4,049 bases of DNA from a plasmid: the NCBI RefSeq assembly GCF_054482525.1, contig NZ_JBTHVG010000005.1; one strand, 5' to 3'. Made by a program: the position numbers and the translations under genes. Positions 127-3,955 of the stretch are shown here, one piece after another. The notes under the pieces were generated by a model. That model was given only the letters and a program-made list of their open reading frames with translations. It was not told where the DNA came from and did not search any database. Each line of letters opens with the position of its first letter. Within the stretch, counting starts at the first letter, position 1.

Positions 127-474
127 CTAATCTGCCATAAGCCTGGATAACAGGGCACGGTGATACTCCGTAATAGCGATCAGCACCTCCGCATACTCCC
201 TGTCCCCGACACGCTTGCCGTCGATAAAGAGTTTTTTCTGTAACGCCCCCAGTCTCATAACTTCTTTCAGTACCCGATCATCAGTCAGTGAGTTAACTTT
301 CTTACCGAGAGCTGCCGCCCGTAAAAAACCGGAAACGGTCTTGCCGCATTCAGCAGCCCTTTTTCTGATTTCCTGGTCTTCTTCTGCCGTCAGACGAACA
401 GGGCGACTGATAGCCCGCCTGCGCGTATTACTTCCACTTCGTTTTGTCATAAAACATGGCTCCGTATCTGACAT
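127..474 (-). CDS. mobC: MobC-family plasmid mobilisation (relaxosome accessory) protein
   Basis: 115-aa ORF whose core (RLTAEEDQEIRKRAAECGKTVSGFLRAAALGKK...) resembles the MobC/MbeC family of small relaxosome proteins. It reads away from the adjacent bom/oriT-like sequence. An alternative start at M9 (ATG at 450) is preceded by GGAG at about 9 nt spacing and may be the true start. Confidence 0.8.
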   Translation of the reverse strand: MSDTEPCFMTKRSGSNTRRRAISRPVRLTAEEDQEIRKRAAECGKTVSGFLRAAALGKKVNSLTDDRVLKEVMRLGALQKKLFIDGKRVGDREYAEVLIAITEYHRALLSRLMAD

Positions 475-733: not shown

Positions 734-928
734 ATGAACAAGCAGCAGCAAGCCGTACTCAACATGGCGGGATTCATAAAAAGTCAGAGCCTGACGCTGC
801 TCGAAAAACTGGACGCACTCAATGCCGACGAACAGGCCGCCATGTGTGAGAAACTGCACGAACTCGCAGAAGAACTCCAGAACAGCATACAGACACGCTT
901 TGAAGCGGAAAATCTTACCGGGATATAA
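734..928 (+). CDS. rop: Rop/Rom (RNA one modulator) protein, copy-number control
   Basis: 64-aa ORF MNKQQQAVLNMAGFIKSQSLTLLEKLDALNADEQAAMCEKLHELAEELQ... closely parallels ColE1/pMB1 Rop (recalled as MTKQEKTALNMARFIRSQTLTLLEKLNELDADEQADICESLH...). A GGAG Shine-Dalgarno lies about 8-13 nt upstream of the ATG (acggagaaaacgaaaagATG). Confidence 0.9.
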   Translation: MNKQQQAVLNMAGFIKSQSLTLLEKLDALNADEQAAMCEKLHELAEELQNSIQTRFEAENLTGI

Positions 929-1580: not shown

Positions 1581-1685
1581 ACAAGTTTTGGTGACTGCGC
1601 TCCTCCAAGCCAGTTACCTCGGCTCAAAGAGTTGGTAGCTCTGAGAACCTTCGAAAAACCGCCCTGCAAGGCGGTTTTTTCGTTT
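1581..1685 (+). ncRNA. RNAI: RNA I antisense copy-number control RNA
   Basis: ACAAGTTTTGGTGACTGCGCTCCTCCAAGCCAGTTACCTCGGCTCAAAGAGTTGGTAGCTCTGAGAACC...GCGGTTTTTTCGTTT parallels ColE1-family RNA I (pMB1: ACAGTATTTGGTATCTGCGCTCTGCTGAAGCCAGTTACCTTCGG...). It ends in a GC hairpin plus T-run. Confidence 0.85.
1656..1685 (+). terminator. RNA I intrinsic terminator (hairpin plus T-run)
   Basis: aaaaaCCGCCctgcaaGGCGGttttttcgttt: GC-rich stem CCGCC/GGCGG followed by six T. Confidence 0.7.
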
Positions 1686-1763: not shown

Positions 1764-1967
1764 TTATACCTTTTGAATCGCTACAGCTTTAAACCCTTTA
1801 TCTGTTTTTTCTAATTTAAACCTAACTAAAATACCTTTACATATATCGACATCATGCCCTAAAAACAAAAAATCATCATACCGAAAGAAAACATCACGTC
1901 CACGCTCACGCCTTATAAAGCCATACCCTTTAACATGGTCATAAAAATTAACAAATCCATTTTCCAT
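1764..1967 (-). CDS. Cold-shock-domain (CspA-like) small nucleic-acid-binding protein; candidate retron effector/accessory protein
   Basis: Core GFVNFYDHVKGYGFIRRERGRDVFFRYDDF aligns to the CspA fold (GxVKWFNxxKGFGFI...DVFVHF) with RNP1-like KGYGFI and RNP2-like VFFRY. The ATG at 1967 lies 4 nt after the RT stop (TGA 1972-1974) and is preceded by AGGTGA, indicating translational coupling. The longest ORF extends to an upstream ATG at 2021 (85 aa) overlapping the RT 3' end; the true start is uncertain. Confidence 0.8.
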   Translation of the reverse strand: MENGFVNFYDHVKGYGFIRRERGRDVFFRYDDFLFLGHDVDICKGILVRFKLEKTDKGFKAVAIQKV

Positions 1968-1971
1968 ATAA

Positions 1972-3111
1972 TCACCTATCTGGAAGTAATGCCACGAGCT
2001 TACGTCTATATAGTTTTGCAAGATTCTTATTAGTCCGCCCTACTATATCAAAATCATAGAGCATCCTATCTATTTTCCTAATCTGATCATCAGTTAAAGG
2101 CGGCGTAAACTTATTTAGATAGTGCTTAGCCATCAACTTTAATTTAGATATCTTGTAATCATCATAAACTGGCATTATCTCAGAAAGAATCGCCCTCAAT
2201 TCAACCGCCTGGACATGCCCAAGCCTCGACATTTGAGCAACCTTGCCAGAGCATCTATTCCATAAATCATGGTACTCTTTCGTATGACGTTCATAAGCAC
2301 CTTGTTTTTTACATATATAAACTAAGTACCTGATATAACGTCTATTTTCTTTTGTTAACTTAGGAACACCATGCTTTACCCACAACCCAGTGACACTAAG
2401 TTTAGAAGACGAATCTTTTGAGTGCTCTATCGTTGTCTTACTTTCATTTATTGAAAGTCTGTACTGATTCACCATTCCGTGAACGAGTTTTATTACTTTT
2501 GTTTTTTCCTCTGATGAAAGATCCTTATCAGAGGATATAGTAATATCATCTAAAAGCCTTGAATATGAAAGCCCCATAGACTTCAATCTATTATAGAGAT
2601 TATACTCACTATTAAAAAATAAAAGATTTGCAATATAACTAGAACAGCACCCACCCTGAGGGACCTTATTATTCAACGTCACAAGTTCCGTTAAGCATAA
2701 AGAAACATCAGGAGAAAAACGCATTAAATTTTTAAAAATAGAACAAACATCTTTTTTACTAATGCTGGGATAAAAATTGGTGATATCAAGACATATAACT
2801 GTTCTTTTCCTAGTATGAACAGCGGCATTAGATATATAATCGCGACCACTTAACGCCCCATGCAAATAATGAGGGTAATCAATTTTCTCAAAAATCTCTT
2901 TATTTATTTTTTTTTGAATTCCTTTCAAAGATCTCTTGGGTTCAAAAATTTGCCTTTCTTTTTTATTCTTCCCTGTTTCAACCTTAAACTGCTTGTACGA
3001 CATCGATACAGACTTGACTATCCAGTCCAATCTTTTTCTTTCTATGCCTAACATCGCAGATAAAGAATCCAAAGATGCAACAGGAGTTCCATTAAACCTG
3101 GGTTTATTCAT
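1972..3111 (-). CDS. Retron-type reverse transcriptase
   Basis: 379-aa ORF with RT motifs in order: NAxxH-like SNAAVH (res 95-99), motif A CLDITNFYPSI (catalytic D109), motif B VPQGGCCSSYIANLLF, motif C YSRLLDDITIS (D188, D189) and VTG (res 240-242). It aligns motif by motif with retron Ec86 RT as I recall it (IDLEDFFPSL / LPQGAPSSPKLANL / YTRYADDLTLS / RKVTGLVI). The ATG lies 7 nt after the a2 repeat. Confidence 0.9.
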   Translation of the reverse strand: MNKPRFNGTPVASLDSLSAMLGIERKRLDWIVKSVSMSYKQFKVETGKNKKERQIFEPKRSLKGIQKKINKEIFEKIDYPHYLHGALSGRDYISNAAVHTRKRTVICLDITNFYPSISKKDVCSIFKNLMRFSPDVSLCLTELVTLNNKVPQGGCCSSYIANLLFFNSEYNLYNRLKSMGLSYSRLLDDITISSDKDLSSEEKTKVIKLVHGMVNQYRLSINESKTTIEHSKDSSSKLSVTGLWVKHGVPKLTKENRRYIRYLVYICKKQGAYERHTKEYHDLWNRCSGKVAQMSRLGHVQAVELRAILSEIMPVYDDYKISKLKLMAKHYLNKFTPPLTDDQIRKIDRMLYDFDIVGRTNKNLAKLYRRKLVALLPDR

Positions 3112-3118
3112 GATGTTT

Positions 3119-3401
3119 GAGTTAAAAGTCGATTAGTTAAAAAGTTTCGATACGTAATCTATTACTTTAAACATAATCAAGCACATAGAAAACAAAAACT
3201 GTGTTTTTTTCAGTGCCTCCAGAGAGCCAACCTCTCTTTTTTTCTTCATCTGACCGTCTCCAGAACAAGATGAAGAGCTCTTGGTTACGTTAATGTTGAT
3301 GTTGATAATAAACATGATGCAACTCCTATTGGTTATGAAATTTTGCCAGACCAGTAGGAAAGCAAGGAAAAACTCTATTGGCTCTTTGGGACTTTTAACT
3401 C
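3119..3401 (-). ncRNA. Candidate retron msr/msd non-coding RNA bounded by a1/a2 inverted repeats
   Basis: Perfect 12-bp inverted repeat: plus-strand gagttaaaagtc at 3119-3130 and gacttttaactc at 3390-3401. On the minus strand this gives 5'-GAGTTAAAAGTC (a1) ... about 260 nt ... GACTTTTAACTC (a2), then 7 nt, then the RT ATG. Internal hairpins include CTTCATCT-n16-AGATGAAG, AGAGAG-gttgg-CTCTCT and AAAAAC-aca-GTTTTT. Exact msr/msd boundaries and the priming G are not determined. Confidence 0.6.
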
Positions 3402-3684
3402 ACATTGCCAGACAATCGTCGCTATTCTTTTAGTGCTGATACACGCTCAGGGGCGTTCTCACCATTAATTAGCGGCCAGGCCGGTCATGATCTCATGCGA
3501 GATCGCCTTAAAAACAAGGCATCGGTTTCCTTGCGCAACATACACGTAACCATTTGTTAAAGAGCGAGAGCCAGGCGTGGTTCGCCCGCTTCGCTGATTA
3601 TTATAAAGTTTTTTATCTTTCTGTCACCAACAAGAAAGCGCCTTATCCTGCCAGCGATAGGCTAAAAGGTATGCAGCATGAGAT

Positions 3685-3921
3685 TCAAATCAACTCAGCT
3701 ACAAAGGCCATAACAACAATCCCAACCTCAGCATCGGCACTCAGGATAATTTTTGAACTAGCATCTCTTAAATTCTGACCGTCAAAGGTTGCTACTTTTT
3801 TTAAAGAGGCATCCCTTAAAACCTTGCCATCAAAAGTCGCTATTTTTCTCGAAAAGGCATCTCTTAAGGTTTTACCGTCAAACCGAGCAACGGTTTTTAA
3901 GTCATTGTTTTTATTGAAATA
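3685..3921 (-). pseudogene. Open frame encoding 16-aa tandem protein repeats with a hydrophobic C-terminus; no canonical start codon, so a possible decayed gene or non-canonical initiation
   Basis: Minus-strand frame from the TAA at 3922-3924 to the TGA at 3685-3687 translates to YFNKNNDLKTVARFDGKTLRDAFSRKIATFDGKVLRDASLKKVATFDGQNLRDASSKIILSADAEVGIVVMAFVAELI*. Differences between repeat copies are largely synonymous third-position changes (GCT/GCG/GCA, GAC/GAT, GGT/GGC, AGA/AGG, AAA/AAG). No ATG, GTG or TTG precedes the repeats; the nearest ATG (3903-3905) is offset by 1 nt and gives M-T-stop. Confidence 0.3.
3761..3904. repeat. Three tandem, diverged 48-bp direct repeats
   Basis: Units at 3761-3808, 3809-3856 and 3857-3904 each begin GCATC(T/C)CTTAA and share an (A/G)CC(G/A)TCAAA block and a T-run; identity is roughly 65-75%. 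Confidence 0.85.
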
Positions 3922-3955
3922 TTAATTTCTCACCAATAGTAATTTAACCAATTGT

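Follow-up and report, generated by a model that had tools for sequence, protein, structure and literature searches.

The cold-shock-domain gene of a plasmid-borne type V retron, Retron-Sen1 (Se72): start codon, predicted fold, and proposed roles beside a small open reading frame in the leader

Here we report on a stretch of plasmid DNA of 4,049 bases (contig NZ_JBTHVG010000005.1 of the NCBI RefSeq assembly GCF_054482525.1), referred to below as the window, and in particular on a small gene which encodes a protein consisting of little more than a cold-shock domain (CSD), and which directly follows the gene of a retron reverse transcriptase (RT). The window is a nearly complete small mobilizable plasmid of the ColE1 type, and the gene is the CSD gene of a known type V retron, Retron-Sen1, also called Se72. 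The two genes and the features found at their junction are the following:

1972..3111, minus strand: gene of a type V retron RT, 379 amino acids (PADLOC RT_V, 423 bits; relatives in PDB are the Ec86 and Ec67 RTs)
1972..1977, minus strand: Shine-Dalgarno-like AGGTGA, read from the sequence, whose TGA is the RT stop codon (coupling junction)
1764..1967, minus strand: CSD gene, 67 amino acids, with ATG at 1967..1965 and stop codon TAA at 1766..1764 (NF038236, CSD_V, Pfam CSD, RefSeq coding sequence)
1968..2021, minus strand: open upstream extension of 18 codons from TTG 2021, lying over the 3' end of the RT gene in another frame

A megablast search of PLSDB gave 16 plasmids with a coverage of the window of 80% or more, among which the best are 4.05-kb plasmids of E. 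coli, Shigella and Salmonella, 98.6% identical to it. In these records the open reading frame (ORF) is annotated as a coding sequence of 204 nucleotides (nt) for a "retron Se72 family effector protein", directly following a "reverse transcriptase family protein". The 67-residue protein scores 85.2 bits against the NCBIfam equivalog model NF038236 (retron_eff_Se72), the cut-off of which is 82, and 85.7 bits on the PADLOC model CSD_V; the upstream RT is matched over its full length by PADLOC RT_V (423.2 bits, E=2.6e-127), the best of 67 models, with lower scores on RT_VI (242 bits) and RT_IV (219). The combination of a clade 3 RT with a CSD protein of 67-86 amino acids defines type V retrons, of which Retron-Sen1 (Se72) is the described member (Mestre et al. 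2020), and a review reports the plasmid location, the cold-shock ORF and the 72-nt DNA product of this retron (Simon et al. 2019). Because family models, plasmid match and published classification agree, the CSD finding is a rediscovery of a known element, and the assignment of the gene to Retron-Sen1 is secure: leader RNA, RT and CSD gene lie on the same plasmid type of about 4.05 kb, and nothing substantive sets the two apart, the window being diverged by about 1.4% from the database plasmids. The element was reportedly described by Rychlik et al. in 2001 and by Pilousova and Rychlik in 2011. A preliminary description of the window, made from its letters, had proposed a retron-associated minimal CSD protein, which is borne out by NF038236, CSD_V and public annotation; it had not recognized the element as the long-known Retron-Sen1.

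The minus-strand ORF spanning 1764-2021 is 85 codons long when counted from TTG 2021, and its 18 extra residues, MQNYIDVSSWHYFQIGDY, overlap the RT C-terminus in another frame, as the preliminary description had stated. The same text had also placed an AGGTGA Shine-Dalgarno (SD) sequence before the ATG at 1967, and this ATG 4 nt after the RT stop, both of which are read in the sequence: TGA at 1974..1972 closes the RT ORF (1972-3111, minus strand), and the four nucleotides TTAT separate this stop from the ATG. On the start codon it had leaned towards ATG 1967 while calling the choice ambiguous; comparative data and RefSeq uphold the former, and the ambiguity turns out to be only apparent. RefSeq gives 67 amino acids in the relatives from E. 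coli, Klebsiella, Hafnia and Edwardsiella. In the Klebsiella plasmid (L002), with an RT 84% and a CSD protein 64% identical to those of the window, the CSD frame has a TAG stop where the window has the TTG, and from this TAG to the CSD ATG there is no start codon. The Hafnia locus (L003) features an in-frame TGA two codons 5' of the CSD ATG, and the locus alignment revealed no start codon 5' of that ATG in Edwardsiella (L004). The stretch 1972-2021 is kept as RT C-terminus (…LAKLYRRKLVALLPDR vs …LAKDYRSKLRALLPER), not in the CSD frame; inspection of the sequence 5' of TTG 2021 found no SD, and both the NCBIfam and the PADLOC CSD models start at residues 1-4 of the 67-residue form.

It is accordingly very improbable that the actual product is an 85-residue protein begun at TTG 2021, or an RT-CSD fusion produced by a frameshift near the RT stop. 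The CSD frame is indeed open for 24 codons 5' of the ATG in this plasmid, the family spans 67-86 amino acids (Mestre et al. 2020), and the CSD proteins of other type V lineages carry 5-18 additional N-terminal residues, which explain the published size range; against both products stand the TAG aligned to the TTG in Klebsiella, the upstream TGA in Hafnia, a TTG lacking an SD, an extension conserved in the RT frame only, and the 67-residue calls of RefSeq. Both candidates were dropped on comparative grounds, from the Klebsiella, Hafnia and Edwardsiella loci. On these sequence comparisons the assignment of the start to ATG 1967, with a predicted product of 67 amino acids, is secure, and translation of the CSD protein most probably does not take in the extension 1968..2021.

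The tight translational coupling claimed for this single junction extends to the family. Nine type V loci, from plasmids and metagenomes, were compared: in all of them the CSD start lies between -8 and +4 nt from the RT stop, always with a purine-rich element 5' of it, and RT-CSD coupling is therefore regarded as a conserved family property.

The match of the protein to the Pfam CSD family (PF00313) is far beyond chance: residues 21-84 of the 85-residue form align to positions 2-65 of the 66 of the model, with E=1.5e-7, and cold-shock protein (Csp) sequences in PDB match it at 1e-6. An RNP1-like motif, KGYGFI (residues 13-18), aligns with KGFGFI of CspA and CspB, and an RNP2-like one, VFFRY (residues 26-30), with their VFVHF, in keeping with the CSD core, carrying such motifs and beginning at ATG 1967, which had been read from the letters. 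AlphaFold2, run with a 39-sequence alignment which included canonical Csps, predicts a five-strand antiparallel cold-shock barrel, that is an oligonucleotide/oligosaccharide-binding (OB) fold, with a mean per-residue confidence (pLDDT) of 91.7; the single-sequence prediction reached a pLDDT of 44. By Foldseek, the model superimposes on Bacillus caldolyticus Csp, Salmonella CspE and E. coli CspA with template-modelling (TM) scores of 0.85-0.91 and root-mean-square deviations of 1.2-1.9. The preliminary description had named structure prediction as a possible refutation of its reading, and a CSD/OB fold is what was obtained. The canonical five-strand fold, with an intact aromatic RNP1/RNP2 surface, can be considered secure as a modelled result, and fold and motifs together indicate that the protein almost certainly binds single-stranded DNA or RNA. 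No solved structures of type V or type IV retron components were found in the PDB copy searched.

Fold and aromatic surface are shared with CspA, CspB, CspE and CspD, identity to CspA, CspB and CspD being 29-35%. The retron protein differs from these in its charge, in having Phe in place of the Trp8 of canonical Csps, in being encoded within a retron operon, and in featuring an IRRE.GRDVFF signature, which is common to other RT-linked CSDs. Its isoelectric point is 9.2, compared with 4.5-5.8 for CspA, CspB and CspD; an RRERGR patch following RNP1 makes it unusually basic. A CspD-type identity was considered and rejected (TIGR02381, 33.8 bits vs a cut-off of 115.4; NF011574, 26.3 vs 147), the protein falling far under the NCBIfam equivalog cut-offs of both CspD and CspE.

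As to the RT, its catalytic motif is RLLDD (codons 185-189, about 2545-2559, minus strand) instead of YxDD. LLDD or LIDD is found in 10 out of 10 type V RTs, as opposed to the YVDD of two type VI RTs, and this motif may be related to the unusual DNA product reported for Se72.

Upstream of the RT gene lies a long leader, which contains a second small ORF. Its features are the following:

3627..3600, minus strand: promoter-like GTGACA-16-TATAAT (11 of 12 in the promoter scan)
3403..3627, minus strand: conserved 5' part of the leader, conserved in Klebsiella and Hafnia
3118..3402, minus strand: structured RNA arm enclosing the small ORF (inverted repeats, fold z-score -4.2, RNAalifold)
3402-3390 / 3130-3118, minus strand: closing perfect inverted repeat of 13 nt, a1/a2-like
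3389-3378 / 3230-3219, minus strand: inner helix
3552-3536 / 3298-3282, minus strand: helix pairing the leader with codons 5-12 of the small ORF (inverted repeat; covaries in Hafnia L003 and Shigella L019)
3133..3315, minus strand: small ORF of 60 amino acids, between leader RNA and RT, with SD AGGAG at 3327..3323
3413..3407 and 3351..3345, minus strand: two copies of GTCTGGC

The conserved leader is about 490 nt long, from the promoter-like site to the RT, and an RNA running from this site to the 3' arm would measure about 475 nt. Both the closing and the inner helix show compensatory changes across 8 loci, according to RNAalifold. An Rfam scan of the window detected only the plasmid RNAI, and no retron RNA family covers the leader.

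The small ORF is present in all nine type V loci, in most of which it was also found by gene callers. It encodes 60-68 amino acids and ends 21-39 nt 5' of the RT (21 nt in the window); shuffling assigns to such an ORF a chance of about 1-2% per locus. Protein identity drops to 15-35% among diverged loci, place and size being kept. A profile search collects a family of 26 protein clusters, all named "hypothetical"; no match was found in Pfam or PADLOC, and the type V listing of Mestre et al. 2020 does not include the ORF. The encoded proteins are basic (+3 to +10) and feature a hydrophobic C-terminal segment. Ratios of nonsynonymous to synonymous substitution (dN/dS) range from 0.17 to 0.6, with one pair at about 1, figures which are confounded by the overlapping RNA structure.

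An SD sequence precedes the ATG of the small ORF in 9 out of 9 loci, and is predicted to be largely paired: eight loci give it a probability of 0.11-0.22 of being unpaired, and the remaining one (L011) 0.41, the overall value being 0.31-0.41. In eight of the nine, GTCTGGC is found exactly two times, each copy at a constant relative position. The first lies immediately 5' of the closing helix, and the second sits in a hairpin at about 3372-3323, the 3' arm of which pairs with the SD of the small ORF; the heptamer might serve to pair with reverse-transcribed DNA or to bind a protein.

The biological function of Retron-Sen1 has been described in published work. Se72 protects E. coli against one of the 12 phages tested, providing defence against lambda, and 9 out of 10 lambda mutants which escape it have their mutations in the gam-bet-exo operon. 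In retron-bearing cells Gam is toxic by itself, and transformation with the retron plasmid is reduced more than 60-fold in a recB deletion strain. The Gam trigger was independently reproduced in 2025; a July 2026 preprint gives the way in which such systems watch RecBCD as undetermined, and type V is not named in a retron census preprint.

A mechanism may be proposed, in which ribosomes ending on the RT gene would make the CSD protein 4 nt downstream, tying its amount to that of the RT. The protein would be a subunit of a particle formed with the RT, the non-coding RNA and the multicopy single-stranded DNA (msDNA); it would work by nucleic acid binding, not by catalysis. It would be kept inactive on single-stranded nucleic acid of the retron itself, and released once RecBCD inhibition altered that nucleic acid; the freed protein would then coat cellular single-stranded DNA or RNA, and replication or translation would stop. 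As shown by others, the retron protects against lambda through growth arrest, which sets in when RecB is lost or when Gam, the RecBCD inhibitor, is present. That the protein is a nucleic acid binder rather than a classical toxin, as the preliminary description suggested, would fit the surroundings of the gene, and no contradicting paper was found. Taken as a whole, we hold it very probable that this is the CSD gene of Retron-Sen1, encoding an RT-coupled, 67-residue protein with an OB fold, a putative effector acting through nucleic acid binding; that it is the effector arresting growth is the consensus default, as yet presumptive.

Some considerations weigh against an effector role of the CSD protein. 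No direct experiment on the protein alone was found in published work, although it is called an effector, and this label derives from where the gene lies. Cold-shock proteins usually act as chaperones and do no harm; CspD, the best-known toxic one, is not close (33.8 bits vs the cut-off of 115.4, see above). The same operon contains a second conserved small ORF with toxin-like features. Moreover, in the work of Rychlik et al. in 2001, production of the small DNA is said to have needed three ORFs, namely one of no known function, the RT and that of the cold-shock homologue, and a need for the last in making retron DNA points to a role in reverse transcription.

The protein might, in fact, be mainly a cofactor of the RT, an RNA and DNA chaperone melting the structured template, and have no direct part in killing. 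Cold-shock proteins are established RNA chaperones, the leader is strongly structured (z = -4.2), and the CSD protein is tightly coupled to RT translation; the requirement for DNA production reported in the early work would fit as well. "Destabilization of RNA secondary structures" was indeed proposed for the CSD by Mestre et al. 2020. We nevertheless consider such a purely auxiliary role unlikely: it leaves the growth arrest unexplained, and needs the small ORF or some other effector to account for it. Since it needs another effector, the cofactor role is compatible with a further alternative, in which the toxin is encoded by the leader.

According to this alternative, growth arrest would come from the 60-68-residue leader protein (3133-3315, minus strand), and the CSD protein would be a nucleic-acid-binding regulator or chaperone. 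The toxin ORF would lie inside the hybrid RNA of about 475 nt, its ribosome-binding site staying paired as long as the retron is not triggered. This hybrid RNA, or the msDNA, would be held or remodelled by the CSD protein, as a counterpart of the helix-turn-helix (HTH) protein of type VI retrons, and through the GTCTGGC pair the SD hairpin could be opened by reverse-transcribed DNA or by the CSD protein. We regard this as a tentative proposal, somewhat less probable than even, which is suggested by an ORF keeping place and size in 9 out of 9 diverged loci, where chance would produce one in about 1-2% per locus, by its conserved SD, predicted to be paired in eight of them, by the covarying helices surrounding it, and by the duplication of GTCTGGC in eight loci.

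The sister type VI clade works by the same logic. Type VI retrons feature a hybrid RNA of about 470 nt, close to the roughly 475 nt of the window RNA, in which ribosome-binding site and start are sequestered; their small toxic protein needs a hydrophobic C-terminal helix, conserved direct repeats of 7 nt are present, and a DNA-binding accessory protein, which early predictions had given as the DNA-binding protein associated with this type, represses the system (Zhang et al., bioRxiv 10.1101/2025.10.22.683967). The characterized members Retron-Vpa2 and Retron-Eco12 share with type V a sister RT of clade 3, and a small nucleic-acid-binding protein accompanied by a small ORF; common to both types are also the location of this ORF in a long structured leader, the paired ribosome-binding site, the a1/a2-like closing repeat and the direct repeats, all of them predicted features in type V.

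The two types differ, however, in several respects. The accessory protein is an HTH protein encoded 5' of the RT in type VI, and a CSD protein encoded 3' of it in type V; no HTH gene lies between small ORF and RT in the window, unlike the type VI loci L021 and L022. The small proteins of type VI are acidic and helical, whereas type V ORFs encode basic ones, and the RT motifs are YVDD and LLDD, respectively. Type VI is triggered by Beta plus Exo, not by Gam alone, and no msDNA is detectable at rest. A toxin encoded in the type V leader is harder to reconcile with Retron-Sen1 being triggered by Gam alone and with its DNA being, according to the literature, abundant at baseline. The small proteins themselves speak against common descent: comparison of the type V family with two type VI proteins, that of Alteromonas included, detected no homology (hhalign probability 0.2%). 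In addition, the dN/dS values are below 1 only weakly (one pair reaching about 1), and the conserved residues coincide with RNA helices, so that part of the apparent protein conservation may be that of the RNA.

The position of the CSD gene, 3' of the RT, is likewise that of the membrane effector of type IV, which counts against the leader as the source of the toxin. Retron-Eco6 (Ec48), of type IV, is the closest characterized RT relative: it responds to inhibition of RecBCD by Gam or to recB loss, and its effector gene directly follows or overlaps the RT, but the effector features two transmembrane helices and is not a CSD protein.

The remaining features of the window belong to the plasmid:

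1583-1683, plus strand: RNAI of the ColE1-type origin (Rfam, 94.6 bits)
734-928, plus strand: Rop gene
127-474, minus strand: MobA/NikA-like gene

About 80 nt lie between the end of the retron module and RNAI; this module is also found on plasmids of 4.15 kb, 4.26 kb and 4.66 kb, and on larger ones, of Escherichia, Klebsiella and Serratia. A hypothetical ORF of 88 amino acids, located at 3685-3951 on the minus strand and annotated in sister plasmids, contains three tandem repeats of 48 nt (3750-3893), each encoding a 16-residue repeat, xATFDGKxLRDASxKK; the ORF gives a weak Pfam match to Bflower_2 (E=2.5e-4). In the window it is disrupted by a single G-to-T change, which creates a TAA stop at 3924..3922, ten codons in.

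Further type V loci came to light. Plasmid p2 of Edwardsiella piscicida (L004, NZ_MZ098225.1, 50-522) carries an intact CSD gene of 67 codons, the product being 42% identical, next to a broken RT, of which only a C-terminal fragment of 90 amino acids is annotated and two pieces are found by tblastn; the locus could represent a retron in decay, or a CSD gene kept on its own. An unannotated type V retron was identified in Halomonas sp. PA16-9 (L023, NZ_CP040452.1, 1176-2917), on a 1.8-Mb replicon, the record of which is almost without annotation. It consists of a small ORF, an RT of 393 amino acids (42% identical) and a CSD protein of up to 84, the gene of which overlaps the RT by 14 nt.

Gene, plasmid, family name and phage-defence phenotype are already on record in the literature and in RefSeq. 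The small ORF and the riboswitch-like leader make concrete the question of how RecBCD inhibition is sensed by type V retrons, and of the way in which a CSD protein of 67 amino acids could stop growth. If the toxin is indeed encoded in the leader, the hybrid RNA logic of type VI would extend to a second retron type, built from non-homologous parts, and the database name of the CSD family, "effector", would be wrong.

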